Positions 6,532 to 46,800 of a DNA stretch of 64,000 bases are shown piece after piece. The position numbers were made by a program, and so were the translations under genes. Source of the DNA: Nitrospirota bacterium (GTDB lineage Bacteria; Nitrospirota; UBA9217); assembly GCA_041476485.1 (NCBI GenBank), contig JBGOTO010000001.1, positions 770 to 64,769 on the forward strand. The letters are read 5' to 3'. Position 1 is the stretch's first letter, and each line of letters starts with the position of its first letter. The notes beneath the pieces were generated by a model. It did not search any database, was not told the origin of the DNA, and saw only the letters and a list, made by a program, of their open reading frames with translations.

Positions 6532-7881
6532 CTACTTTCTGGGGGAATTCCACTTCTTTCGCTTTTCCCATAGGGATTTCCGGGTTATCCCGAGCATGTT
6601 CGCGAGCTGCTGCTCGGTGTAAGCTCCCTGGTGGGTAATGATAAAATTTTTGGCATAGTCTTCAATAGAAAGCTTCCCGGGGAAGGCCTGTTGATCGGGC
6701 TGGTAGGCCTCTTTTTTCATATCCTCCGGCAGGTGGTCCGGACCGATGACGTTGCCGTCCGATATAAGAATGGCCCGTTCGAGCACATTCTGGAGTTCCC
6801 GTATGTTGCCCGGCCAGGCATACTCCCGGATAAAACCGAACGCCTCGTCTGACACTTCCTTCCGCTGTTTTCCCATTTCCTGGGAATACCGCTCCAGGTA
6901 ATAGTTGACGAGGGCGGGGATGTCCTCCCTGCGTTCGCGGAGCGGCGGGATAAGAAGGGTGATCACATTGATCCGGTAGTAGAGGTCTTCCCGGAAGGTC
7001 CCGTTCCGGACGGCGGCTTTGAGGTCCTTGTTCGTGGCGGTGATGAACCGTATTTCGATCTTCGCAGTTTTCGTGCTGCCCACGGGCCTGATCATTTGGT
7101 CCTCGAGGACCCGCAGGAGTTTTACCTGGAAGGAGAGACTGACGTCGCCGATCTCGTCGAGAAACACCGTGCCGCCGTCCGCCTCTTCGAGGAGCCCCTT
7201 TTTGGACAGCACGGCCCCGGTGAAGGCCCCCCGCACGTGGCCGAAGAGCTCGCTTTCGAGCAGGGTCTCGGGGATGGCGGAGCAATTGATCGGCACAAAA
7301 GGCATGGCGCTCCGTGAGCTGTTGTGGTGGATGACCCGCGCGAAGAGTTCCTTGCCCGTTCCGGTCTCTCCGCGAAGAAGGATGTTGCTTTTCGAATCCG
7401 CGATTTTCTTTACTTCGCTGATGATGTCTTTGATCGTCGCGCTCTCGCCTATGATGTTGCGGAAATCATGCGTTTGCGCGATTTCGCGCTTGAGGAGGGC
7501 GTTCTCAGCCTGAAGGCCTTTCTGGCGGAGCGCGTTGCGCACGACCTGCTTGATCTCCTCATGGATGACGGGCTTCATGATATAGTCGTAAGCGCCGGCC
7601 CGCAGGGCTTTGACCGCCGTGTCGAGCGAGGCATAGGCGGTCACAATGATGAACACCTGGTCCGGGATCAGCTCCCGGACGTGCGAGAGCAGTTCGATGC
7701 CGTCCATTCCCGGCAGGATGATATCGGAGATGATCACGTCGTAGGAGCCCGATTCGAGAAGGACCAGTCCCTTTTCGGCGGAATCGGCCAGGTCCACGTT
7801 GAACCCTTCCTTGGCAAAGATCCGCTTGAGAGACTCCTGCAGCGTCTTTTCGTCTTCGATGATCATCAGGTTCTTCGACAT
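6532..7881 (-). CDS. sigma-54-dependent response regulator (REC + AAA+ sigma-54 activator + Fis HTH), NtrC/CbrB type
   Basis: D-box receiver; GETGTGKE Walker A; GAFTGA sigma-54 contact motif; C-terminal HTH. Confidence 0.9.
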   Translation of the reverse strand: MSKNLMIIEDEKTLQESLKRIFAKEGFNVDLADSAEKGLVLLESGSYDVIISDIILPGMDGIELLSHVRELIPDQVFIIVTAYASLDTAVKALRAGAYDYIMKPVIHEEIKQVVRNALRQKGLQAENALLKREIAQTHDFRNIIGESATIKDIISEVKKIADSKSNILLRGETGTGKELFARVIHHNSSRSAMPFVPINCSAIPETLLESELFGHVRGAFTGAVLSKKGLLEEADGGTVFLDEIGDVSLSFQVKLLRVLEDQMIRPVGSTKTAKIEIRFITATNKDLKAAVRNGTFREDLYYRINVITLLIPPLRERREDIPALVNYYLERYSQEMGKQRKEVSDEAFGFIREYAWPGNIRELQNVLERAILISDGNVIGPDHLPEDMKKEAYQPDQQAFPGKLSIEDYAKNFIITHQGAYTEQQLANMLGITRKSLWEKRKKWNSPRK

Positions 7882-7883
7882 GT

Positions 7884-10829
7884 TTATGCCCTCACGGGTA
7901 TCTTGATCAGAAAGGTGGAACCCTTTTCTTTCTCGGAAGTGAGCTCAATGGTACCGCCGTGGTCCTTGATGATGCTGTAGCAGATGCTGAGGCCGAGGCC
8001 CGTGCCCTGCGCCGGACCCTTGGTCGTGAAAAAGGGGTCGAAGACCTTGTCCCTGACCTCGGCGTCCATGCCGCCGCCGGTGTCGGAGAAAGCCAGTTCC
8101 ACCTGTCCGTCCGCGCGGCGCACCGTGATAGACAGTCGGCCGCCCTCGGGCATGGCGTCGCGGGCGTTCAGCACCAGGTTGAGAAACACCTGCTGGATCT
8201 GGTCCGGGTCGATCTTGAGCGGAGGCACGTCTTGGATGTCCGTGACGATCTCGATCTTTCGGAAGTTGCGGTCATACCGGACGAGGTTCAGCGTGTTTTC
8301 GAGAATGCCGTTCAGGCTCGTCGGGACTTTCTGGCGCGGGTAGAGCCGGGCAAAGTCGCCGAGGTTGCGGACGATCCGAGCTATGCGGTCCACGTGCTGG
8401 TTGACGGTCGAAAGAGAGCTTTTTACGAAGTCCGTGGCCTCCTCGGCGAGGAGCTCCTGCACGAGCGATGAGATCGAGGCGAGGGGATTGCCGATCTCGT
8501 GCGACACCCCGGCGGCGAGACGCCCGATGGTCGCGTGCTTGGTCGCCCGAAAGAGCTCTTCCTCGATCTTTTTCTTCTCCGTAATGTCCTCGAACACGAG
8601 GACGTGTCCCTTCCGCGCCCCCGTGAGCAGGCTGATGTACCCCTTCAGGACGAGGGCAGGGTCGAAGTTCCGCGTGCCCGTAAACTCGCCTTCGCGGATA
8701 TCGGGGCCGAACAGGCGCGGATCGAGGCATGTGAGGAGCCGGTCGGCCTCCCTCCCCATGGCGACGGACTTCTGCACGCCCGTGATCATCTCCATGGCCC
8801 GGTTCCAGGAGGTGACGCGGTGCGACTCGTCGAGGGTCGCCACGCCGAGGGGAATGCTCTCAATGATGTTCTCGCTGAACTCCTTGAGCATGGCGAGCTG
8901 GCGGTTCGCTTCAGCGAGCTCCTGCCGGGACAGCCTGAGGCTCTTCGAAATCCGGCCGACCGAGTCGGAAAGCCGCGCTTTTTCTTCGTGCGTGAGCACT
9001 GCCGTGTCCTGGAAGATCAGGGCGCTGATGGAAGGGCCGAGCGCCCCGGAAAGGATCCGCTCCGCCTCTTCGCGGAGCCTGGCGAGCCACTGCCCGGTCA
9101 CGGCCCCGCGGGCAAGGCCGTTTTGCCGCAGAAACCCTTCCACTGCGTCACGCGCCTCGGCCGCCCCGATGTACTGTTCGAGGACCGCCTCGATCTCGGC
9201 AAGGCTCTTCGGCCCGCGCGAGGACGCAAAAGGTTCCGGAAAATAGGAATGGACGAAGATCATGGCCTGACGCATCTCCGTGTCGGACTGTTTCGTGAAG
9301 ATCGAGACGGCCACATAGAAGAACAGGTTCAAAAAGAGCCCCCAGAACAGGGAATGGCTCCAGCGGTCGAGCCCTTCGAGTCCGAAGAGCGCTCTGGGGT
9401 CCAGGAATCTCGAGTTGAAGAGTGCCTCCAAGAAGCCGCTTTTGTGGAGGATGCCGGCCCGTGCAAGCGCGGGGATAAGCAGGGTGTAGATCCAGATGCT
9501 GAACCCCGCCAAAATCCCGGCGATCGCGCCCTTGCGGTTTCCGCCCTTCCAGTACAGGCCGAGCAGGAGCGCCGGGGCGAAGATCGTCACCGCCTCGAAG
9601 GACTTGAGCCCCATATCCACGAGGCTGTAGAACTCGCCGATGTACACGGCAAAGAAGTACCCGAGGAAGACGCACCCCATGATGATGAGACGCTTGATGT
9701 TCAAAATCACCGCGGGGAACCCTTTCACGACGTTCATTCTCCAGAGCGCGGGCATGACGAAGCTGTTCATCACCATGGTGGACAGCGCTATGGACTCGAC
9801 GATGATCATGGCCGTGGCTGCCGAGAAGCCGCCGATGAAGGCGATGAGCGCGAACGTGGGGTGGCCCCAGGAGAGCGGGATGCTCAGGACAAAATAATCG
9901 GCATCCTGCTGCGTCCAGCCCAGAAGCAGCCCGCCGAAGGCGATGGGGAGAACAAAGACGTTGATCAGGAACAGGTAGAGCGGAAAGAGCCACATGGCTT
10001 TCTTGATGTGCTCGGGGCTGTAGTTCTCGACCACGGCAACGTGGAACTGCCGCGGGAGAAACAGGATTGCCATCATGGCAAGGAACGTGAGCGATGTCCA
10101 TTCAAGGAAACTCACCGGGGAACCCGGGCCCATCTTCGTAAGATAGGCATAGGGTGAGCGTTCGATGCCGCTGAGAATGTCGCCGAACCCGTCGAAGAGC
10201 CCGTAGGTCACGAAGCAGCCTACGAGGAGGAAGGCGGCGAGTTTAATCGCCGATTCGAACGCAACGGCGAAAACGAGCCCGCTGTGCCGCTCCGAGGCAT
10301 TGAGCTTCCGCGCGCCGAAGATGACCGCGAACACGCCGAGCATGAGCGAGAGAAACCATCCCGCGAAGTGGCCCCCTTCGGGCTTGCCCGAGAGGAGGGA
10401 GAAGGTGGTCATGACGGCCTTGAGCTGGAGACCGAGGTACGGGGTGATGCCGACGACGGCGACGAGCGTCACGAGGGCCGAGAGGGCGAGGGACTTGCCG
10501 TATCGGGACCCGATGAAGTCGGAAATTGTCGTGATCCGGTGTTCCTTAGAGAGGTAAACGATCTTCCGGAGTACGATCCACCACAGGGCGGCCATGAGCG
10601 TGGGGCCCACATAAATCGTGAGGAAACTCAGGCCCGAGTTCGCCGCCTTGCCCACGCTGCCGTAGAAGGTCCACGAGGTGCAGTATACGGCCAGCGAGAG
10701 GGAATAGACATAGGGGTTTGAGACCAGGCTCCTCCCCTGGAGCTCTTTCCGGTCGGCGAAATAGGCCACGGAGAAAAGCAGGACGAGGTAAGCGAGAAGT
10801 ATGGACAGGAGCACCCAGGTTGAGAACAA
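7884..10829 (-). CDS. hybrid sensor histidine kinase with N-terminal sodium:solute-symporter-like 13-TM domain, PAS, HisKA, HATPase (CbrA/CrbS-type)
   Basis: About 480 aa of SSS-like membrane domain, then a coiled coil, PAS (SIPLGVATLDESHRVTSWNRA), H-box HEIGNPLASI, and N/G1/G2 boxes. TTG/GTG start directly abuts the stop of the upstream small ORF. Confidence 0.85.
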   Translation of the reverse strand: MFSTWVLLSILLAYLVLLFSVAYFADRKELQGRSLVSNPYVYSLSLAVYCTSWTFYGSVGKAANSGLSFLTIYVGPTLMAALWWIVLRKIVYLSKEHRITTISDFIGSRYGKSLALSALVTLVAVVGITPYLGLQLKAVMTTFSLLSGKPEGGHFAGWFLSLMLGVFAVIFGARKLNASERHSGLVFAVAFESAIKLAAFLLVGCFVTYGLFDGFGDILSGIERSPYAYLTKMGPGSPVSFLEWTSLTFLAMMAILFLPRQFHVAVVENYSPEHIKKAMWLFPLYLFLINVFVLPIAFGGLLLGWTQQDADYFVLSIPLSWGHPTFALIAFIGGFSAATAMIIVESIALSTMVMNSFVMPALWRMNVVKGFPAVILNIKRLIIMGCVFLGYFFAVYIGEFYSLVDMGLKSFEAVTIFAPALLLGLYWKGGNRKGAIAGILAGFSIWIYTLLIPALARAGILHKSGFLEALFNSRFLDPRALFGLEGLDRWSHSLFWGLFLNLFFYVAVSIFTKQSDTEMRQAMIFVHSYFPEPFASSRGPKSLAEIEAVLEQYIGAAEARDAVEGFLRQNGLARGAVTGQWLARLREEAERILSGALGPSISALIFQDTAVLTHEEKARLSDSVGRISKSLRLSRQELAEANRQLAMLKEFSENIIESIPLGVATLDESHRVTSWNRAMEMITGVQKSVAMGREADRLLTCLDPRLFGPDIREGEFTGTRNFDPALVLKGYISLLTGARKGHVLVFEDITEKKKIEEELFRATKHATIGRLAAGVSHEIGNPLASISSLVQELLAEEATDFVKSSLSTVNQHVDRIARIVRNLGDFARLYPRQKVPTSLNGILENTLNLVRYDRNFRKIEIVTDIQDVPPLKIDPDQIQQVFLNLVLNARDAMPEGGRLSITVRRADGQVELAFSDTGGGMDAEVRDKVFDPFFTTKGPAQGTGLGLSICYSIIKDHGGTIELTSEKEKGSTFLIKIPVRA

Positions 10830-11066
10830 TTAACCGCCGCCCTCTTCTTTTTCCGAGATAATCGTGGCAAGAAAGGTGAGCACGATGAAACCGAGCCAGG
10901 CGAGAAACAGGTACCAGGTCAGGCTATTCCGGAAGATGCTCATGATGGGCCAGGTGAACAGTGCCCCGCCGAGCGCGAATAGAAATATCCAGATATCTCT
11001 TCTCATGTCTGCCTTCCTGACAAGGGGAGTATGGATGCCGGAACGATGAAAATCATGATAACACAA
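10830..11066 (-). CDS. small 2-TM membrane protein translationally coupled to the symporter-kinase (DUF4212-like, inference)
   Basis: 78-aa ORF with two hydrophobic helices; its TAA stop is immediately followed by the TTG start of the kinase. Confidence 0.5.
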   Translation of the reverse strand: MCYHDFHRSGIHTPLVRKADMRRDIWIFLFALGGALFTWPIMSIFRNSLTWYLFLAWLGFIVLTFLATIISEKEEGGG

Positions 11067-11246
11067 TCAATGCCCGAATTCTACAGCATTTTGATTCAAC
11101 GGCCGGGGACGCCCTTGTCGTGCTGAACAAATAAACTTGGTATTGACCAGCCAATTATGTGAAAATTCCCTCGACTGGGGAAGCCAGGCGTGTGATAATT
11201 TCTCCACAGCATAGGCTTATTGTCATAAACAGGATATAATAGTGAT

Positions 11247-11393
11247 TACTCAGGTCAGCTACTTCGCTTTGCGCAAGGCGCGCCGGATAATTAAGGGAAT
11301 TTCGAAGTCGACCACAAGCCCCACCTTGCTTGATGTCCGTGCATCGGTCGCCGCGCGCTTCATTGCGCCTTTGCTCCGCAGCAGACCTGAGTA
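11247..11393. repeat. MITE-like ~147-bp intergenic repeat, copy 1 (TIR tactcaggtc / gacctgagta)
   Basis: About 95% identical to the copies at 23499..23645, 24915..25062 and 46431..46577. 10-bp perfect terminal inverted repeats; internal imperfect palindrome gcgcaaggcgcgcc ... ggcgcgcttcattgcgcc. Confidence 0.85.
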
Positions 11394-11431
11394 GTTACCT
11401 ATAATAAAATTAAAAAAAAATGGAGGGTCAC

Positions 11432-14314
11432 ATGAAAAAGTTTCTATCGGTTTCTCTTGTCATTATGGTTAGTGTTTTCACAGCCGCGGTCTGTACAGCC
11501 GAGCCGCCCACGGAGCCCATCCTCCGGATCGAGACCGGGATGCACACGGCGAAGATCGGGCGAATCGGCGTGGACGACGAAAACCGTTATCTCGTTACCG
11601 CGTCGGAAGACAAGACCGTGCGGCTCTGGGACCTTTCGACCGGCAGGCTCATCAGGATCTTCCGGCCGCCGGTAGGCGAGGGAAATGAAGGAAAGATTTA
11701 CTCAGTGGCCCTGTCCCCGGACGGGAACACCATTGCCTGCGGCGGATGGACGCAGTATGAAAACGGATCGTTCCAGGCGGTGGATTATTTCATCTACCTC
11801 TTTGACCGTCAGAGCGGCGGCGTCATCCGGAGAATCAGCGGACTGCCGAATGTCATTAACCAGCTCGCTTTTTCCCGGAACGGGGGATTTCTTGTGGCGA
11901 CCATGGGCCGGAGCAACGGCATCCGCGTCTACCGCTCTTCCGATTACCAGCAGGTGGCACTAGACGAGGATTACGGAGATAACAGCTACGGCGCCGACTT
12001 CGACGGGCAGGGGAGGCTGGTAACCGCGTCCTATGACGGCTATGTCCGCCTGTACAGCAGTTCCTTCAAGCTGATTGCAAAGATGAAAGCTCCCGGTGGA
12101 AACAAGCCCTTTGCGGTGCGTTTCAGTCCTGACGGCTCAAAGGCGGCGGTTGGATTCGTTGATTCCACAAAGGTGGATGTTCTCTCGGGGAATGATCTTT
12201 CCTCTCTTTTCTCTCCCGACACCTCGGGGGTGAACAACGGCAGCCTGTTCACCGTTTCCTGGTCTTCGGACGGGCGAAGTCTGTACGCAGGAGGACAGTA
12301 TACGAGCGACGGCACCCCCATCGTCAAATGGTCCGAAGGCGGCAGGGGCGCGCGCCGCAACTTGACGGCGGCAAACTCCACCATCATGCATATCCTGCCT
12401 CTGAAATCAGGCGGCATTGTTTTCAGCTCCTATGATCCCGCCTTCGGAATCATCAACGGCAGCGACCAACGCACACTCTTTAAAGCGCCCTCCACTCCCG
12501 ATTATCGGGACAACCAGCAGGGACTGCTGCTTTCTTACGACGGCTCATCCGTCCAATTCGCCTATGAACTCTGGGGCAAGTCGCCGGCTCGTATTTCCGT
12601 CTCCGAAGGGCTTCTTACCACACAGGTCGAAGCGACGAATTCCCAACTCGCCGCACCCGTCTTCTCTGCTCCGGGGATGGACATCACTAATTGGAAGTAC
12701 ACCTACGGTCCCAAACTCAACGGCGTCGAGCTGAAGCTGAAGCCGTATGAATGGTCGACCAGCATCGCCATCGCCCCGAATGGAGAATCGTTTCTCCACG
12801 GCTCGCTCTGGAACCTGCGCCTTTTTGACCGCGTCGGCGCCGAGAAATGGATCGTCCCCGCTCCGGGCGTGGTTTGGGCAGTGAACATCTCGGGGAACGG
12901 CAAAGTCGCGGTGGCGGCATGCGGCGACGGCACGGTCCGTTGGTACCGGATGACGGACGGGAAGGAACTTCTCGCCTTCTTCCCCCATATCGATAAAAAA
13001 CGCTGGGTCCTCTGGACCCCGTCGGGCTACTACATCGCTTCCCCCGGCGGCGAGGATCTGATCGGCTGGCACATCAACAACGGAAAAGACGCCGCTGCGG
13101 ACTTCTTTCCCGCTTCGCGGTTCCGGGACCGGTTCTACCGGCCCGACGTGACCGCGAAAATTCTCGGAACGTTCGATGAATCCGAAGCGGTCCGTCTGGC
13201 GAATGAAGAGTCGGGAAGGAGGCAGCAGGAGGCGTCGATCAAGCAGGCCCTGCCGCCGGTCGTGAGCATCGTCTCTCCTTCGGACGGCGCCGTTGTCTCA
13301 AATTCGCAGATCACCGTCAAATTCACGGTCCGGACGCCGTCCGGTGAACCGGTGACGTCTATCAAGGCTTTGGTGGACGGCCGTCCGGTCGCAGCGGAGC
13401 GGGGAGTCACCATAACCCCGAAAGACGCCGAACAAAGGGAAATCAGTATAACCGTCCCCGAGCAGAACACGGAGGTCTCGATTATCGCAGAGAACCGGTT
13501 TGCGGCAAGCGAGCCGGCAACGATACGGGTCAAATGGCGCGGGAAAAAGCAGCAGGACGAGTTCATCATCAAGCCGAAGCTCTATGTCCTGTCCGTCGGA
13601 GTGAGCAAGTACCAGAACCCCGATCTCACCCTGGGGCTTGCCGCCAAGGACGCCAAAGACTTCGCCGCCACCATGCAGAAGCAGCAGGGAGGGCTTTACC
13701 GCGAGGTGGTGACAAAGGTCCTGACCGATGAAAAGGCGACCAAGGACGATATTCTCGACGGTCTCGACTGGCTCCAGCGGCAGACCACGAGCAAGGACGT
13801 GGCCATGATCTTTCTGTCCGGCCACGGCGTGAACGACCAGAACGGCATCTACTATTATCTTCCGGTGAACGCGGACATCGAAAAACTCAAGCGGACGGGA
13901 GTGCCGTTCTCGGACGTCAAGAACACGGTGGCGTCACTGGCCGGGAAGACGGTTTTCTTCGTGGACACCTGCCATTCCGGGAGCGTCATGGGCCAGCGGC
14001 GCGGGCTGACCGACATCACCGCGATGGTGAATGAGCTTTCGAGCGCCGAGAACGGGGCGGTGGTCTTCGCCTCGTCCACCGGGGGCCAGTACTCCCTTGA
14101 GAAGTCGGAATGGGGAAACGGCGCTTTTACCAAGGCACTCATTGAGGGCATGAGCGGCAAAGCGGACTATACCGGCAAGGGCAAAATCAGCATCAACATG
14201 CTCGACCTGTATCTTTCCGAGCGGGTGAAGGAATTGACCAAAGGTAAACAGACGCCGACGACCACGAAGCCCAGCACCGTCCCGGACTTCCCCGTGGCGG
14301 TGAAGAGGCAGTAA
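11432..14314 (+). CDS. secreted WD40 beta-propeller / Ig-like / caspase (peptidase C14) multidomain protein
   Basis: Signal peptide MKKFLSVSLVIMVSVFTAAVCTA. WD40 repeats such as TASEDKTVRLWDLSTGRLIRIF and GDGTVRWYRMTDGKEL. Ig-like segment PPVVSIVSPSDGAVV...IRVKW. Caspase His-Cys dyad in FLSGHGV (His codon ~13823) and VDTCHSG (Cys codon 13971..13973). The ORF track start at 11420 lies 12 nt upstream; ATG 11432 has a GGAGGG RBS. Confidence 0.8.
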   Translation: MKKFLSVSLVIMVSVFTAAVCTAEPPTEPILRIETGMHTAKIGRIGVDDENRYLVTASEDKTVRLWDLSTGRLIRIFRPPVGEGNEGKIYSVALSPDGNTIACGGWTQYENGSFQAVDYFIYLFDRQSGGVIRRISGLPNVINQLAFSRNGGFLVATMGRSNGIRVYRSSDYQQVALDEDYGDNSYGADFDGQGRLVTASYDGYVRLYSSSFKLIAKMKAPGGNKPFAVRFSPDGSKAAVGFVDSTKVDVLSGNDLSSLFSPDTSGVNNGSLFTVSWSSDGRSLYAGGQYTSDGTPIVKWSEGGRGARRNLTAANSTIMHILPLKSGGIVFSSYDPAFGIINGSDQRTLFKAPSTPDYRDNQQGLLLSYDGSSVQFAYELWGKSPARISVSEGLLTTQVEATNSQLAAPVFSAPGMDITNWKYTYGPKLNGVELKLKPYEWSTSIAIAPNGESFLHGSLWNLRLFDRVGAEKWIVPAPGVVWAVNISGNGKVAVAACGDGTVRWYRMTDGKELLAFFPHIDKKRWVLWTPSGYYIASPGGEDLIGWHINNGKDAAADFFPASRFRDRFYRPDVTAKILGTFDESEAVRLANEESGRRQQEASIKQALPPVVSIVSPSDGAVVSNSQITVKFTVRTPSGEPVTSIKALVDGRPVAAERGVTITPKDAEQREISITVPEQNTEVSIIAENRFAASEPATIRVKWRGKKQQDEFIIKPKLYVLSVGVSKYQNPDLTLGLAAKDAKDFAATMQKQQGGLYREVVTKVLTDEKATKDDILDGLDWLQRQTTSKDVAMIFLSGHGVNDQNGIYYYLPVNADIEKLKRTGVPFSDVKNTVASLAGKTVFFVDTCHSGSVMGQRRGLTDITAMVNELSSAENGAVVFASSTGGQYSLEKSEWGNGAFTKALIEGMSGKADYTGKGKISINMLDLYLSERVKELTKGKQTPTTTKPSTVPDFPVAVKRQ

Positions 14315-14329
14315 GCGGTTCTTCACGGC

Positions 14330-14950
14330 ATGTGGCGCAAGGCTGAAGGCAGAAAAATGCGGCGGTTTATGAGGAACAGCAGGGGAAACATCTACCTCGA
14401 ATTTGCATTGCTTGCGGCGGTGTTCCTGGTAGCGGGCGCGCTGCTTGTCGGCATCCATCCCGCATTCGGACTGCTGGTGCCCATCGGCGTAGTGATCTTC
14501 TTTGTGCCGAACATCCTGTCGGGAGTGGCGTCATGGCAAGACAGACGGAGCTTCCGCCGGCAGCTCGCGTCGGTGGGAAACGTTGAGCGGAACCCTCCTA
14601 TTATGATTAGAAATGAGTTTCGCTGGTCGAAGGCCCAGGCCCTCTGGCTCGACCCCGCACGAGGCGAGCTGGGACTGCTGAACGCCGCAGACGGCCCGTC
14701 AACCAGGACGCTGGATGCGCTTCGCTCGGTGCGGGCCGTGTTTGCCGAAGCCGCCCAGGTGCGGACCTTTCACCGGCAGTATCGCGTTCCTGCGCGTTAC
14801 GCCCTGGTGTTCGACTTTGAGAACCAACCGTCCCTTGAGCTCGTTACGTACAAGAAGCGCGTAGCGGTCCAATGGATCGAAACACTGCGCCCCCATCTCG
14901 GCGGCCGGCTGAACACGGAAGGACTCGAGGCTAAAACCGGAATTCATTGA
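14330..14950 (+). CDS. hypothetical 2-TM membrane protein downstream of the caspase gene
   Basis: Starts 16 nt after the caspase stop; two N-terminal hydrophobic helices and a ~130-aa soluble domain with no motif I recognise. Confidence 0.5.
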   Translation: MWRKAEGRKMRRFMRNSRGNIYLEFALLAAVFLVAGALLVGIHPAFGLLVPIGVVIFFVPNILSGVASWQDRRSFRRQLASVGNVERNPPIMIRNEFRWSKAQALWLDPARGELGLLNAADGPSTRTLDALRSVRAVFAEAAQVRTFHRQYRVPARYALVFDFENQPSLELVTYKKRVAVQWIETLRPHLGGRLNTEGLEAKTGIH

Positions 14951-15262
14951 AGCGGTCCCGTCCGGTTTGCCGCCAAAATCTTGTATTGGAGGAGGTTCGC
15001 ATGCGTAAATGGTCAGTAGCAGCCTGCAGAACGCGAACGGCCATGATTACGACAAAATGGAAGTCGAGCATAAAAAGACAGGGGAAAAAGCAGTTTTTTA
15101 TTTTAACGTCGATATGCCGTATAGGTGGCTGAACAAGAAACTTCAATAGTATAAGGCCGTCACCGTGAGGAATGCAGGGCTTTTTCCTTTACATTTCGTT
15201 CCCTTTTATTGTATAAACCCAATGTATCTCCTGACCCTGTTTTGTCCTTTCCGAGGTTTTTC

Positions 15263-16039
15263 ATGATTCTCGTAACCAATGACGACGGCGTATACTCCCC
15301 CGGCATCCAGATTCTCGCCAAGCGGCTCCGCGAACTCGACCAGGTAACCATCGTCGCCCCGGACCGCGAACGGAGCGCGGCGGGCCATTCCATGACGCTT
15401 CACCGGCCGCTCCTGATCGAGGAGATCAAGGAATCGATCTACAGCGTGAACGGCACGCCCACGGACTGCGTGAACATCGCCGTCAAGGGTCTGTTGAAGG
15501 AGGAGCCGAAACTCGTGGTCTCGGGCATCAACAAGGGACCGAACCTGGGAGATGACGTCACCTATTCCGGCACGGTCGCCGGCGCCATGGAAGCAACGCT
15601 GCTCGGCGTCCCGTCCATCGCGGTGTCGCTCGTCGCGCGGGAAGAGTTCCGTTTTGCCGAGGCGGCCGAAGTGGCCTTTCGCACGGCGATAAAAATATTC
15701 GAACAGGGGCTTCCGAAGGGTACGCTCCTCAACATCAACGTTCCGAACCTCCCGCTTTCCGAGATCCCGGGCACGCTCATCACCCGGTTGGGCAAGCGCA
15801 TTTACCATCAAATGACCGTGGAGCGCGTCGATCCGCGAGGTAAGAAATACTATTGGATCGGCGGCGGCGAGCCGGACTGGGAGCGGGAAGAGGGCACGGA
15901 CTTCGACGCGGTCGGCCGGAACATGGTTTCGATCACGCCGTTGCATCTCGATTTCACGGACTATTCCTCCTTCGACAAGCTTCGGTCCATGGAAACCATG
16001 ACGTTTGTTCCCGCGGCGCCGCACCGGAGCGGCGAGTGA
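15263..16039 (+). CDS. surE: 5'/3'-nucleotidase SurE
   Basis: [19 protein letters not shown] ... [19 protein letters not shown] are canonical SurE motifs. The ORF track start at 15209 lies upstream of the conserved N-terminus. Confidence 0.9.
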
Positions 16040-16680
16040 TCAATTACGAAGTGGCGCGCGGCCGCATGGTGGACGAGCAGATTACGGCGCGGGGCGTCAA
16101 AGACGAACGGGTCCTTGCGGCGATGCGCACGGTGCCGCGCCACGAGTTCCTGCCCGAGGCCATCCGCGGCATGGCGTACGAGGACAACTCGCTTCCGCTC
16201 GGCGAGAGCCAGACCATGTCCCAGCCTTACATGGTGGCGCTCATGACCGAACTCCTGGAACTCACGGGAACGGAGCGGGTGCTCGAGATCGGGACCGGTT
16301 CCGGGTATCAGGCGGCGGTACTCGCCGAACTGTGCGAAAAGGTGTATTCCGTCGAGCGCATCAAGCCGCTCGCGGACAAAGCCAGGGCCGTGCTCGACCG
16401 GCTTGGCTACCGGACCGTCGCGATCAAGGTCTACGACGGCACGTACGGCTGGAAAGAAATGGCGCCCTTTGACGCTATCATGGTGACGGCGGGCGCTCCC
16501 GACGTTCCCGCGCCGCTCGTTCTGCAGCTCAAGGAAGGCGGACGGATGGTGGTCCCCGTGGGAGACCGGCAGGGGCAGGCGCTCCTGAAAGTCGTCAAGA
16601 CCGCGGAAGGCGTCGTTGCCGAGCGAAGCATCCCCTGCACCTTCGTGCCGCTCATCGGCAGCCACGGGTGGAAAGAGTAA
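16036..16680 (+). CDS. pcm: protein-L-isoaspartate O-methyltransferase
   Basis: [35 protein letters not shown] (SAM motif), classic surE-pcm pairing. The GTG start at 16036 overlaps the surE stop; ATG at 16066 is an alternative. Confidence 0.85.
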
Positions 16681-16734
16681 CGATTTCGGATTGTAGATTA
16701 CCGATTGCGGATTGAAATGGCGAGGGGTAGTGAA

Positions 16735-17328
16735 TTATTCCTTCTGCTTCATGATCTCTTCGTTCCCGAGCACCTGATATAAGATTGACAGAGCCAGCCC
16801 AATAGCCGTTCCCAATATCACTCCCACAAGAACATCCGCAGGATAATGGACCCCAAGATAGAGGCGGGAAAAAGCAATGGCCGATGCGAGCAGTAGGGGA
16901 TAAAATCTCCATATGAGCTCGATATACCAACGGGTAAGGTAAAAGAGGGGCGCGGCAAAGGCAAAAGAGGATATTGCATGGCCTGAAGGCATGGAGAAGG
17001 ACTTCGGGCATGCGACGATGAGCCTCAGCCCCTCGAGAGCGCGGCATGGCCGCGGACGCGCTACGGCCTCTTTGACGATCTGTTCCATCCACCCCGCAAG
17101 GAACACCGAACAGCAGGCAAGCACGAGAGTCACCAGCGCTGCTGCTAAAAAGGTTTTTCCCCGGGTGTTCTTCTGTTTTGCCGACCGCAAGAGCATGGCG
17201 AGGAGAAAGGGAATGATCAGGAGATACCCGCGCTCCGAGAGGGCAGGCATGAGAATATCGAACAGCCCGTTTACGGTCCCGTGATTGATGAGAAGCAGGA
17301 GCTGCGTGTCCAGGGACTGTATGGTCAT
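16735..17328 (-). CDS. PAP2-family phosphatase (undecaprenyl-diphosphatase-like)
   Basis: Motifs KxxxxxxRP (KEAVARPRP), PSGH and SRxxxxxHxxxD (SRLYLGVHYPADV); 6 TM. Confidence 0.75.
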   Translation of the reverse strand: MTIQSLDTQLLLLINHGTVNGLFDILMPALSERGYLLIIPFLLAMLLRSAKQKNTRGKTFLAAALVTLVLACCSVFLAGWMEQIVKEAVARPRPCRALEGLRLIVACPKSFSMPSGHAISSFAFAAPLFYLTRWYIELIWRFYPLLLASAIAFSRLYLGVHYPADVLVGVILGTAIGLALSILYQVLGNEEIMKQKE

Positions 17329-17342
17329 GATTGCCGGCGCTG

Positions 17343-17681
17343 CTAGGCGCTCGTTGCGCCGCACTTGACTACGTGCGTGTCGCTTATTTCAATGAGCCCT
17401 TTTTCAACGATCGATGTAAGCTCCGCCAGGATGACGTTTATCTTTTCCTCCGTGTCCACGACTTCGATCTTGACCGGAAGGGTGGTGGAGAGTTCCAGTA
17501 TCTTCGTGGTGTGGAGCTTGCCTTTGATTCCGTAACCCGCAACTCCGCGGAACACGCTTGCCCCGGCGATTTTCCGCAGCGCCAGGACGTCCAGAACCGC
17601 TTCATACACGGGCTTGCCGTGGAGCTTCTCGGTCTCGTCTACATATATGGTAAGTTTCTTTGCCGGTCCGGGTTTGACCAT
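17343..17681 (-). CDS. DUF190 (PII-like) protein, usual partner of CrcB
   Basis: 112 aa, immediately downstream of crcB on the same strand. Confidence 0.7.
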   Translation of the reverse strand: MVKPGPAKKLTIYVDETEKLHGKPVYEAVLDVLALRKIAGASVFRGVAGYGIKGKLHTTKILELSTTLPVKIEVVDTEEKINVILAELTSIVEKGLIEISDTHVVKCGATSA

Positions 17682-17725
17682 GGTGGATTCCTTTCATAAC
17701 GCGTGCAAGATTGAAAGCCCACGCG

Positions 17726-18097
17726 TTAAATACTCTTCGCTATGACCTCGCCGAGCTTCAGCGCAATGAAGCCGACCAGGACACTGAACACGACGTTCAA
17801 TCCAGCGATCAGTAACTCGCCGTCTTTCAGGAGCGTACCGGTTTCGTATTCGAACGTGGAGAACGTGGTGTAGGCGCCAAGAAATCCGACCACGAGGAGC
17901 AGCCTCCACTGAGGGTTTATCATAAAGCGCTCTGCGAAGAGCGTCATGAGCAGACCGATGAGGAAGCTGCCGCTCACGTTAATGATAAACGTGCCGAGAG
18001 GAAAGCTCCGGCCCCACCGTTCTCCGATCCAGACCGCCAGAATGTAGCGGGCGATTGCGCCAATGAAGCCGCCGACGCCGATAATCAAATAATTCAT
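17726..18097 (-). CDS. crcB: fluoride ion channel CrcB/FluC
   Basis: MNYLIIGVGGFIGAIARY ... GFLGAYTTFSTFEYE; 4 TM, 123 aa. The track ORF 17726..18997 is an artefactual upstream extension. Confidence 0.85.
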   Translation of the reverse strand: MNYLIIGVGGFIGAIARYILAVWIGERWGRSFPLGTFIINVSGSFLIGLLMTLFAERFMINPQWRLLLVVGFLGAYTTFSTFEYETGTLLKDGELLIAGLNVVFSVLVGFIALKLGEVIAKSI

Positions 18098-18283
18098 TGT
18101 GCGAAACCTCGGTAGTAATTTAGCAGATATTGTTCTCGATGACAATAGAATACTGGCATCGGCCGGTATTTCAATGCGTATGATTTCAATCATAGAAATT
18201 TCTGCGAAAGAGGAGTAAAAAAGTGTATAATAAGGGCAGTGGAAATCAGAGAGCCCTGAAAAAAACAAAAAGGAGAATACACC

Positions 18284-18508
18284 ATGAAAGAAAAAGTAAT
18301 CGAGGCCCTCAAAAAAATCAGGCCGATGCTCCAGCGAGACGGCGGCGATATTGAACTCGTGAGCGTGGAAGAGAACGGTGTCGTTAAGGTGCGGCTGAAA
18401 GGCGCGTGCGGCTCCTGCCCCATGTCCACGATGACGCTCAAGATGGGCGTTGAGAAAACGCTGAAGCAGGAAGTCCCGGGTGTCACGGAAGTGGTCCAGG
18501 TAGCGTAA
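18284..18508 (+). CDS. NifU-like (Nfu-type) Fe-S cluster scaffold domain protein
   Basis: 74 aa; [14 protein letters not shown]...GACGSCPMS motif. Confidence 0.8.
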
Positions 18509-18577
18509 CCGGTTCATCCTTTTTTGAAATCCTTCTCTTAATTCGATCCTGTCATCACAACGGAATGAGGGTGGCCT

Positions 18578-18994
18578 ATGGACAGGCTTGTGTCGCGCTG
18601 CATTACGGCTGCGCTGGTCTATTTCGCGCTCGGCGCCGGGCTCGGCGTGGTGATGGTCTTCTGGCCCGAGTGGCCGGCGGTAGTGCGGACTGTCCACACG
18701 CACATCAACCTGTCGGGTTGGCTGACGATGACGGTGTATGCCGCGGGGTACGGAGTGTTGCCGCGCCTCGCGGGAAAGCCGCTCTACAGCCTGCGGCTGG
18801 GAAGCGTTCAATTCTGGCTGGCAAACGCCTCGCTGGTTGCCGTGTCGCTGTTCTGGATCCTCGCGTCCTTTCCGGAACCGGGAACGCTGACGTATGCGTT
18901 GCTTTATTCCGGTGTTGCGATATCCGCCGTGCTGCTGGCCGCGAGTGCGGATTTGTTCGTTTTCAATATGGTCATGACGCTGAAACGAAGGTAG
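18578..18994 (+). CDS. hypothetical 4-TM membrane protein with conserved His cluster (HTHINLSGW)
   Basis: 138-aa hydrophobic ORF with RBS GGGTGG; no family I can name. Confidence 0.45.
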   Translation: MDRLVSRCITAALVYFALGAGLGVVMVFWPEWPAVVRTVHTHINLSGWLTMTVYAAGYGVLPRLAGKPLYSLRLGSVQFWLANASLVAVSLFWILASFPEPGTLTYALLYSGVAISAVLLAASADLFVFNMVMTLKRR

Positions 18995-19056
18995 CATGTT
19001 CTGTTTCCCCCCGTGCGTTCGCGCTCTCTTATCAGCTTACTTCTTGTTAATTCCCG

Positions 19057-23498: not shown

Positions 23499-23645
23499 TA
23501 CTCAGGTCAGTTGCTTCGCTTTGCGCAAGGCGCGCCGGATAATTAAGGGAATTTCGAAGTCGATCACAAGCCCCGCCTTGCTTGATGTCCGTGCATCGGT
23601 CGCCGCGCGCTTCATTGCGCCCGCGCTCCGCAGCAGACCTGAGTA
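23499..23645. repeat. MITE-like ~147-bp repeat, copy 2 (between rnfA and rnfB)
   Basis: Begins 10 nt after the rnfA stop; same TIRs and core as copy 1. Confidence 0.85.
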
Positions 23646-23729
23646 GTTATGTAAAAATGATAAATTCAAAGTGAAAAATTTACAATAAAGTGGTAGTATA
23701 CTTCTGCTTTAATTTTTTTGTGAAGGTGC

Positions 23730-24902: not shown

Positions 24903-24914
24903 TTAGCCGCGAAT

Positions 24915-25062
24915 TACTCAGGTCAGCTACCTCGCTTTGCGCAAGGCGCGCCGGATCATTAAGGGAATTTCTAAGTCGACCCACAAGCCCCGCCTTGCTT
25001 GATGTCGGTGCATCGGTCGCCGCGCGCTTTATTGCGCCTGCGCTCCGCAGCAGACCTGAGTA
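24915..25062. repeat. MITE-like ~147-bp repeat, copy 3 (after rnfB)
   Basis: Begins 12 nt after the rnfB stop; same orientation as the other copies. Confidence 0.85.
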
Positions 25063-25345
25063 GTTACAAGAATTTTTAAAAAGCACGGAGGGGATGTAAA
25101 AAAGCATTCCCTTTTTTATTTCTCCGGCCTGTGCCCCGTCCCCCCGCGGGTCATTCCCCTTGACAATGCCGTATCCCTATGTAAGAATAAAATGGTTCTC
25201 CGCAACGGCGAGGAACATCTTCCGCGCATGCACGGGCGCCGCGAATTTTTTTGGGGAAGCTCCCGCTCTTTTTGCTTGACAAAAATATGCGCTTAGGCTA
25301 AAAACAGAACCATTCTCGATTTGTTCACGCTTCCGGAGGTATCAT

Positions 25346-45997: not shown

Positions 45998-46429
45998 ATG
46001 CCGTACCGGTTCCTCGAAGATGTCGCTATCGCCGATGTCGCCTTCGAAGCCGAAGGGCGGGTCCTTCCGGAATTGTTCAAGGAGGCGGGCCTTGCGGTGA
46101 CGAACACGATGGTGCAGGACCTTTCGCAGATCGAGCACAAGATCGCAAAGAGGATCAAGGGCGCGGCGGAGAATATCGAGATGCTGCTGTTTCATTTTTT
46201 GCAGGACCTGATTTTCTACAAGGACGCGGACCTGCTTCTCTTTAGCGATTTTCATCTCACGATCGTCCAGCGGGAAGGCGAGTGGCGCCTCCATGGAACG
46301 GCCTATGGCGAAGAGATATCCCCTGACCGGCATGAACTTCTTGTCGACGTAAAGGCGGTGTCTCTCCATAATTATAAAGTCCGGAAAACGGCAAAGGGAT
46401 GGCAGGCGGAAGTCATCCTTGATGTGTGA
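45998..46429 (+). CDS. archease (RtcB activator)
   Basis: 143 aa, 1-nt gap after rtcB; matches the archease family pattern. Confidence 0.75.
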   Translation: MPYRFLEDVAIADVAFEAEGRVLPELFKEAGLAVTNTMVQDLSQIEHKIAKRIKGAAENIEMLLFHFLQDLIFYKDADLLLFSDFHLTIVQREGEWRLHGTAYGEEISPDRHELLVDVKAVSLHNYKVRKTAKGWQAEVILDV

Positions 46430-46430
46430 T

Positions 46431-46577
46431 TACTCAGGTCAGCTACTTCGCTTTGCGCAAGGCGCGCCGGAGAATTAAGGGAATTTCGAAGTTGACCACA
46501 AGCCCCACCTTGCTTGATGTCCGTGTATCGCTCGCCGCGCGCTTCATTGCGCCTGCGCTCCGCAGCAGACCTGAGTA
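46431..46577. repeat. MITE-like ~147-bp repeat, copy 4 (after archease)
   Basis: Starts 2 nt after the archease stop; same TIRs as the other copies. Confidence 0.85.
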
Positions 46578-46659
46578 GTTACCTTGATGTTTAAATCCGC
46601 GCGCGACTTCTCTGCATTGACAGGCAACCGGTGCTCTTATCTCACGCCCGATAAAATAA

Positions 46660-46688: not shown

Positions 46689-46695
46689 ATAGGCA

Positions 46696-46800
46696 CATAA
46701 AGCTGGGGGAGCCTATGGCTGAGAGTCCTGTTCACGAGGGACGACCCTTGGAACCTGATCCGGGTAGTGCCGGCGTAGGGAAGGCGAGTATGTACCAGGA
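46696..46800 (+). promoter_or_regulatory. TPP (THI-box) riboswitch
   Basis: CTGGGGGAGCC...GCTGAGAG...ACCCTTGGAACCTGATCCGGGTAGTGCCGGCGTAGGGAAG matches the THI-element core (CUGAGA, ACCUGAUCYGGNUAAUACCNGCGNAGGGA). Confidence 0.85.

Follow-up and report, generated by a model that had tools for sequence, protein, structure and literature searches.

The stretch analysed here, referred to below as the window, is a 64,000-nucleotide part of contig JBGOTO010000001.1 (assembly GCA_041476485.1) of a Nitrospirota bacterium. The gene of interest is an uninterrupted open reading frame (ORF) on the plus strand at 11432..14314, whose 960 codons encode a protein of 960 amino acids (aa), not the 961 of the initial annotation. 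An identical 960-aa product is already deposited in NCBI. The protein combines an export signal, a WD40 beta-propeller, an Ig-like domain and a C-terminal caspase-fold domain of peptidase family C14, and its gene lies between a short transposable element and a small membrane protein gene that we call ORF2. A Shine-Dalgarno sequence, GGAGG, can be read at 11422-11426 (plus strand), 5 nt before the ATG at 11432, and is kept in the sister strain L086, which is about 94% identical. The in-frame ATG at 11420 is unlikely to be the start because it overlaps the Shine-Dalgarno sequence.

Domain structure of the protein

All parts of the protein are encoded on the plus strand and are described here from the N-terminus onwards, leaving the signal peptide for later. 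The layout rests on Pfam searches, on an AlphaFold2 model of the full-length protein built on 38 relatives (mean predicted local distance difference test, pLDDT, 85.3; predicted template modelling score 0.68), and on Foldseek comparison of the model with solved structures. The model has a helix at residues 2-17, strands over residues 30-560, helices over 561-606, a beta-sandwich at 610-702 and an alpha/beta caspase fold at 716-957.

Residues 26-560 (11507..13111) form a tandem WD40 beta-propeller. At 77.2 bits the Pfam WD40 model (PF00400) is well above its cutoff of 27, and many propeller models match residues 33-290 and about 484-517. In the AlphaFold2 model residues 30-560 make about 11 four-stranded blades, with pLDDT of 90-98 over most of their length, and the top Foldseek matches of the full-length model are the tandem 7-bladed WD40 propellers 2ymu and Aip1 (1nr0). 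With the Pfam cutoff exceeded and the propeller fold present in the model, we have no hesitation in calling it a WD40 propeller protein.

A helical linker follows at residues 561-608 (13112..13255), with modelled helices at 561-568, 571-580, 583-594 and 603-606, and then an Ig-like beta-sandwich of 7-8 strands at residues 609-703 (13256..13540). The Pfam match for the latter is to Big_7 at residues 609-657 with 21.4 bits, slightly under the cutoff of 24.1. Two relatives (P0003 and P0060) also have sub-threshold Big_7 matches (E = 0.0003 and 0.003) at the equivalent place, directly before the caspase domain.

The initial annotation had proposed a WD40, Ig-like and C-terminal Peptidase C14 layout, and this is borne out by the Pfam searches and the full-length model, with a WD40 part of about 530 aa. 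The observation of a fused WD40-caspase protein with an export signal is thus confirmed.

The caspase domain and its catalytic residues

Residues 715-960, together with the stop codon (13574..14314), form a metacaspase-like Peptidase C14 domain, found by Pfam, in the model and by Foldseek. The Pfam model Peptidase_C14 (PF00656) matches residues 720-947 with 70.5 bits against a cutoff of 21.4, and as the match covers positions 5-226 of the 233 in the model, the p10-like part is present. Residues 705-960 were also modelled separately (pLDDT 84.8) and compared with solved structures by Foldseek. The matches include MALT1, GSU0716 (3BIJ), yeast Yca1 and Candida metacaspases, T. brucei MCA2, Arabidopsis MC9 and caspase-8, all with probability 1.0 and template modelling (TM) scores of about 0.6-0.68.

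The domain has the motifs LSGHG, which includes His798 (codon 13823-13825), and VDTCHSG, which includes Asp845 (13964-13966) and Cys847 (13970-13972). In the family alignment G797-H798-G799, D845, C847, G850 and R857 are invariant in all 38 relatives, and the claim made at first annotation that the caspase His and Cys are intact therefore stands. In the AlphaFold2 model His798 and Cys847 are at the C-terminal ends of strands 790-801 and 839-847 respectively, which are the canonical caspase positions. The Pfam score, the alpha/beta fold of the caspase-hemoglobinase type and the His-Cys dyad motifs together place the domain in peptidase family C14.

D845 corresponds to Asp133 of GSU0716, and the motifs around His84, Asp133 and Cys135 of that protein and in plant metacaspases are YSGHG and SDSCHSG (PMC3881575). 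Characterised C14 enzymes other than caspases are all specific for Arg or Lys and have an acidic S1 pocket (PMC5756287). The invariant D-x-C motif with Asp845 points to the same P1 specificity, and we predict cleavage after Arg or Lys and not after Asp. D740, in an invariant K-D-A motif, may be a second acidic residue of the pocket, by comparison with the ND motif of metacaspases.

The domain has a sole low-confidence loop, residues 849-860 (pLDDT < 50), directly after the catalytic Cys. It holds a conserved R856 and the invariant R857, in an RR(G) sequence at residues 856-858, and R857 is a plausible site for autoprocessing or activation, the loop being likened to the intersubunit linker of caspases.

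One other similarity was noted in this domain. Residues 769-846 (window positions about 13736-13969) have a weak but reproducible local similarity to the MCR-1 and MCR-2 phosphoethanolamine transferases in NCBIfam and PDB searches, covering about 75 residues of the strand-His region (DVAM..SxHG) with E of about 2e-4 to 5e-3. In single-sequence and profile searches of PDB with the caspase region these transferases were the main match, ahead of true caspases. We take it to be chance or convergent local similarity, the fold search being unambiguous for caspases.

The export signal

The signal peptide was judged by hand and by comparison within the family. Residues 1-25 (11432..11506; MKKFLSVSLVIMVSVFTAAVCTA) have an n-region MKK, a 17-residue hydrophobic h-region and then C-T-A, with small residues at -3 and -1, after which the predicted mature protein begins EPP. 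These are the n, h and c features of a substrate for Sec and signal peptidase I. In the full-length model the region is a separate helix with pLDDT of 54-68. The signal peptide of the initial annotation is thus supported, and the family gives further support. We classified the 120 best database homologs and found the same kind of signal in 87 and a lipobox in 21, leaving 12 unclassified, most of which come from gene calls cut short, with an internal Met as their start; at least 3 of the 12 are visibly signal-bearing. A signal peptide or lipobox is therefore present in at least 111 of the 120. In the 87 the signal ends in small residues and is followed by the near-invariant (A/G)EPPxEPILRIETGMHTA. 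Identity across the family is 23% for the signal region, 59% for the propeller, 58% for the Ig-like domain and 75% for the caspase domain.

The mature proteins average 3.7 cysteines (0.39%) and Cys847 is the sole conserved one, which fits with a catalytic thiol in an oxidising compartment. On these sequence features the protein is probably Sec-exported and periplasmic. A 2012 census remarked that what are taken for N-terminal "TM helices" in prokaryotic metacaspases could be signal peptides (PMC3501461). Export of a caspase-WD40 fusion was initially thought to be unusual, but it is a trait of a large conserved family.

There is also a long paralogous class of about 1300-1375 aa (P0002-P0007, P0014, P0018 and others), 42-50% identical to the window protein. 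All 21 of the long variants that could be classified have a lipobox (L-x-S/A-C) where the others have the signal peptidase I site. In this class the lipobox is followed by a Pro/Ser/Thr-rich tether of about 25 residues and then by a conserved mature start, KPPQxPIIRIE. The class has about 400 additional residues ahead of the caspase domain, and in P0003 Pfam finds two C14 stretches.

Distribution of the family

The family is large: tblastn confirms 444 loci among species-representative genomes, and the window protein is matched by over 4500 proteins in the databases. Relatives that are 58-67% identical over the full length are spread across phyla. Carriers are found in Nitrospirota, Desulfobacterota, Acidobacteriota, Verrucomicrobiota, Spirochaetota, Gammaproteobacteria and Chlorobi-like bacteria; at least 8 phyla carry the family and every one of them is diderm. 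A full-length member, 57% identical, is also present on a 5.4-kb contig (JBEKOM010000043.1, L028) assigned to the bin of a Candidatus Bathyarchaeia archaeon; contamination of the bin is the probable reason, the alternative being transfer from a bacterium to an archaeon.

In the databases the members are named "caspase family protein" or "WD40 repeat protein", and we found no description of an exported or periplasmic WD40-caspase in the literature searched. The window gene, with 60-67% identity to many others, is an ordinary member of a widespread and catalogued, but experimentally untouched, family.

ORF2, the downstream membrane gene

ORF2 is at 14330..14950 on the plus strand and begins 15 nt after the caspase stop codon (16 nt in the initial annotation), although the ATG at 14357 is the more likely start because homolog alignments begin at about residue 11. 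The two hydrophobic helices reported initially are there, at about residues 21-41 and 46-66, and the product appears to be a lineage-specific inner-membrane protein with a hairpin of two transmembrane helices and a predicted cytoplasmic C-terminal domain. The ratio of non-synonymous to synonymous substitution (dN/dS) against the sister strain L086 is 0.215, and relatives exist, some of them 37-46% identical, with identity ranging down to 28%; on both counts it is a genuine gene. It has no match in Pfam, NCBIfam or PADLOC, and HMMER, run exhaustively against 1.84 billion representatives, gave a family of 18 relatives. That family has a conserved motif in the hairpin, AGALL.GIH..F.LL.P.G...FF.PN.

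There are 8 Lys or Arg among residues 1-20, the two hydrophobic helices are linked by IHPAFG, and the second is followed by QDRRSFRRQ. By the positive-inside rule this charge pattern puts both termini and the soluble domain of about 140 aa in the cytoplasm, with about 5 residues in the periplasm. The membrane would thus separate the soluble domain from the exported protease.

The gene-neighbourhood check proposed with the initial annotation went against the pair: using tblastn we found no homolog of ORF2 beside any of 83 loci of the caspase family. Conversely, four independent contexts of ORF2 homologs (79%, 46%, 43% and 41% identical) include no caspase gene. The 79% homolog (P0122) is between CopD/cytochrome-b5 and metallophosphatase genes, and the DNA there resembles the window within ORF2 alone. 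There is no caspase 3' end upstream of the 46% homolog (P0123), while the 43% homolog (P0124) is near luxI/luxR and the 41% homolog (P0126) near a Ser/Thr kinase gene. These more distant relatives (41-43%) are seen at 4518-6747 of L087/L088 beside the LuxI/LuxR pair and at 351-3390 of L089 beside the Ser/Thr kinase gene. The caspase-ORF2 pair is kept in the 94%-identical sister strain L086, and adjacency of the two genes is limited to strains that are at least 93% identical.

Co-transcription of the two genes is possible, as the gap is short and has no predicted terminator, but it would be incidental. ORF2 is a chance neighbour and, as a functional partner, is largely refuted.

Genes found beside other family members

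ORFs were called and clustered in the 10-kb flanks of the 83 loci, and the adjacent genes were surveyed by a Pfam census and local profile searches. A recurrent neighbour is a DUF4384 protein, present in 24 of the 83 loci, 15 times at -1 and 6 times at -2, and often with a 4-nt overlap with the caspase start, so that the two genes are often translationally coupled. All of the DUF4384 neighbours have a signal peptide. Fusions of DUF4384 to cyanobacterial orthocaspases are known. A CHASE2-adenylate/guanylate cyclase gene is present in 7 of the 83 loci, mostly at +1, and FecR in 4 loci, while 14 of 80 loci have a further C14 gene.

In the case of P0008, the second-closest homolog listed (67% identical), the order is FecR, TPR-CHAT, DUF4384, WD40-caspase and CHASE2-cyclase. 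A cluster of this kind, with FecR, in some cases HicAB, TPR-CHAT, a secreted DUF4384 protein, WD40-caspase and CHASE2-cyclase, is at 2450-12994 of L001 and also in L002, L004, L005 and L007, with stop/start overlaps between DUF4384 and caspase and between caspase and cyclase. Clusters of this kind are seen in one sub-clade of the family. The TPR protein of L001 is itself a TPR-CHAT protein, and the L001 cluster is embedded among VapBC, AbiEii, PIN and DUF433 modules.

Adjacent tandem paralogous WD40-caspase genes are found at 8001-13852 of L003 (Nitrospira sp. Kam-Ns4a) and in L064, L069 and L049, the L064 genes overlapping by 4 nt. An FGE-sulfatase gene is present about 3 kb upstream in L003; fusions of FGE-sulfatase with prokaryotic metacaspases are known.

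Profile searches of the 64-kb window found no DUF4384, CHASE2, FecR, TPR-CHAT or second caspase gene. A 12-bit match to the CHASE2 profile (E = 0.0014) was disregarded in view of the tiny search space, and the possibility that ORF2 is a cryptic analogue of DUF4384 was ruled out (hmmsearch E = 0.17; hhalign probability 0.4%).

The upstream element and the wider surroundings

The inverted-repeat search identified a 157-bp element at 11242-11398 (no strand assigned) resembling a miniature inverted-repeat transposable element (MITE), with 19-nt terminal inverted repeats (GTGATTACTCAGGTCAGCT and AGCAGACCTGAGTAGTTAC). Copies with 89-96% identity are at 46426-46584, 23499-23649 and 24913-25092, giving four in the window. 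In the sister strain the orthologous site has unrelated sequence and no MITE, while the Shine-Dalgarno sequence and start codon are kept, and we conclude that this is a recent strain-specific insertion. It is thus a short, non-coding, multicopy element with terminal inverted repeats and insertion polymorphism, as expected of a MITE, and the MITE copy reported initially just upstream of the gene is real. It is outside the functional unit and at most could affect the promoter. A thiamine pyrophosphate riboswitch (46695-46799) begins about 110 nt beyond the end of the copy at 46426-46584. Rfam gave no RNA element near the caspase locus.

Further upstream, at 6532-11066 on the minus strand, are genes for a sigma54 response regulator and for a 981-aa histidine kinase with PAS and sodium:solute symporter (SSF) domains, and a 78-aa membrane ORF. 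The arrangement is CbrA/CbrB-like, and the 78-aa ORF overlaps the kinase start by one base. Downstream of ORF2 are surE, pcm, PAP2 phosphatase and DUF190 genes, followed by crcB, which is assigned by position as relatives carry crcB after DUF190. This surE-pcm-PAP2-DUF190-crcB block (15209-18997) is syntenic in L093 and L094, with SurE 86-88% identical; in L094 the synteny continues to NifU and Rnf genes. SurE relatives with 83-86% identity are labelled Nitrospirota, which agrees with the source of the window. Upstream of surE L093 and L094 have HU, MerR and DsbA-like genes and lack both the caspase gene and ORF2, whereas the window has the histidine kinase gene, the MITE, the caspase gene and ORF2 there. 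With upstream content differing in this way between relatives, the caspase gene and ORF2 are at a synteny break or rearrangement boundary that is confined to a narrow lineage.

Comparison with known systems

The type I metacaspases (C14B), such as GSU0716 of Geobacter sulfurreducens (3BIJ), Yca1 (4F6O) and T. brucei MCA2 (4AF8), share the caspase-hemoglobinase fold with the window domain (TM score about 0.6-0.67). The motifs (Y/L)SGHG and D-x-CHSG are common to both as well, and with them the Asp at the second position ahead of the Cys. However the structurally characterised metacaspases are single-domain proteins or have an N-terminal prodomain, whereas the window domain is at the C-terminus of an exported 960-aa WD40-Ig protein. 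Yca1 and MCA2 are intracellular.

The combination of C14 and WD40 is itself known from cyanobacterial and other WD40 orthocaspases (Trichodesmium TeMC9, Gloeobacter; Metacaspase-NACHT-WD40), and no domain accompanies prokaryotic caspase homologs more often than WD40, which is found in 10.9% of them (PMC3501461). Described orthocaspases are p20-only, with no p10, and have the caspase domain at the N-terminus and any extra domains C-terminal to it (PMC5756287). In comparison the window protein has the reverse domain order, an export signal and a domain that spans almost the whole C14 model. It is not an orthocaspase as defined, since its domain aligns over about 255-290 columns with metacaspases that have both p20 and p10 and its extra domains are N-terminal.

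The best structural match to the model of the window domain is the MALT1 paracaspase (3UO8, 3V4O; E = 4e-13, TM score 0.67). In both proteins a caspase-fold domain adjoins an Ig-like domain, and MALT1 is Arg-specific. The two differ in that MALT1, a signalling protein of the eukaryotic cytoplasm that includes a death domain, has the Ig-like domain after the caspase, while the window protein has the Ig-like domain before the caspase, and identity is 17-19%.

Among NCBIfam models the best match to the caspase domain is NF047832 (caspase_w_EACC1), with 83 bits over residues 721-933. This does not reach the cutoff of 140 and the window has no EACC1 domain or partner; the described EACC1 systems are nucleoside triphosphate-dependent conflict systems of the cytoplasm. 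With regard to the FecR/TPR-CHAT/CHASE2 clusters, these house P0008 and relatives in L004, L005 and L007, but the window has none of the partner genes.

Proposed function and alternatives

We consider it fairly probable that the protein is a Sec-exported, probably periplasmic, cysteine endopeptidase of the metacaspase type (clan CD, family C14), and that its gene stands alone at a synteny break. Signal peptidase I would remove residues 1-25 to give a mature protein starting at the family-invariant EPPxEPILRIETGMHTA. The tandem WD40 propeller may then dock protein substrates or partners, with the helical linker and Ig-like spacer joining it to the C-terminal caspase-fold domain, which would catalyse by His798 and Cys847 and cleave after basic residues. 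Arg857, 9-10 residues after the catalytic Cys in the disordered loop, would serve for autoprocessing or activation. Members of the family most likely carry out a regulated form of proteolysis in the envelope, which in some lineages would be connected with transmembrane signalling by cyclic nucleotide monophosphates.

Several points weigh against this interpretation. Sequence similarity to solved caspases is weak (E = 0.023 for 3bij and 0.09 for MCA2, and 0.02-0.2 for caspases overall), and the dyad is matched to that of solved caspases by its motifs and by its place on the strands. The cleavage call for the signal peptide is a rule of thumb. The literature searched holds no experimental data on any family member. 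Finally about 70% of family loci have neither a DUF4384 nor a CHASE2 neighbour, and as the window is among those with none, a role in envelope signalling may not apply here.

The pairing proposed in the initial annotation, in which the exported protease and a co-transcribed ORF2 form a functional unit with ORF2 as anchor, immunity protein or partner, does have some attractions. The two genes are on the same strand with a gap of 15-42 nt, depending on the ORF2 start, and no terminator-like site between them, the pair is kept in L086, and ORF2 is under purifying selection. However ORF2 is absent from every homolog locus surveyed, its family is tiny beside the thousands of caspase proteins, its own homologs are in caspase-free contexts, and only about 5 of its residues are predicted to be periplasmic. 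Relatives with the surE-pcm synteny lack both genes, and the pair is confined to strains that are at least 93% identical. We regard this pairing as very unlikely. An uncleaved signal anchor, or a non-functional hydrophobic segment, would leave the protein tethered to the inner membrane or in the cytoplasm like the described WD40-orthocaspases, and TMHMM-type predictors do often call such segments transmembrane helices (PMC3501461). This too we think quite unlikely, because nearly all relatives have small -3/-1 residues after the h-region followed immediately by the invariant mature N-terminus, because the lipobox of the long variants, which requires export, is at the same position, and because the mature proteins are depleted in cysteine. 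It could also be argued that the caspase domain is a non-catalytic binding module, making the protein a periplasmic scaffold: a complete dyad alone is not proof of activity (PMC5756287), and pseudo-orthocaspases are reported from cyanobacteria (PMC6426788). We give this very little weight, given that His798, Cys847, Asp845 and the flanking glycines do not vary and that no other part of the protein is as well conserved as the caspase domain.

A role in conflict or defence, as an envelope protease acting against phage, predators or competitors or as a suicide protease, deserves rather more attention but still seems unlikely. Caspase-like effectors are common in bacterial conflict systems (PMC7159879), the generic PADLOC caspase model PDLC02987 matches at 9e-12, there are the tandem paralog expansions in 14 of 80 loci, and the L001 copy is among VapBC, HicAB, AbiEii and PIN modules. 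On the other hand full-length identity of 58-67% across phyla and a dN/dS of 0.11 for the caspase gene are unlike fast-evolving conflict proteins, and we found no NTPase, STAND, vWA-MoxR or EACC1 partner, nor any conserved immunity gene or connection with a secretion system. PADLOC gave no match to a system-specific model and no partner genes, so that the protein cannot be assigned to a known anti-phage system, and the described conflict systems act in the cytoplasm while the window protein is exported. Also improbable, to a similar degree, is an as yet undescribed periplasmic pathway in which the propeller captures a DUF4384 partner or the CHASE2 ectodomain and the caspase cleaves it after Arg or Lys, possibly in a cascade with TPR-CHAT, thereby switching the cyclase; stand-alone copies such as that in the window would then act on other envelope targets.

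Exported metacaspase-type proteolysis is thus the interpretation that we prefer. The window gene in itself adds nothing unusual to the family, and the attractive pair of protease and partner is not borne out. However bacterial caspase homologs have mostly been discussed as cytoplasmic effectors of cell death or defence, and here there is a large conserved family built for export. Taken at family level, the export signals, the unvarying dyad, the loop that may serve in activation and the DUF4384, CHASE2 and CHAT neighbours should be useful for research on envelope proteolysis and on bacterial caspases, and the whole family would repay biochemical study.

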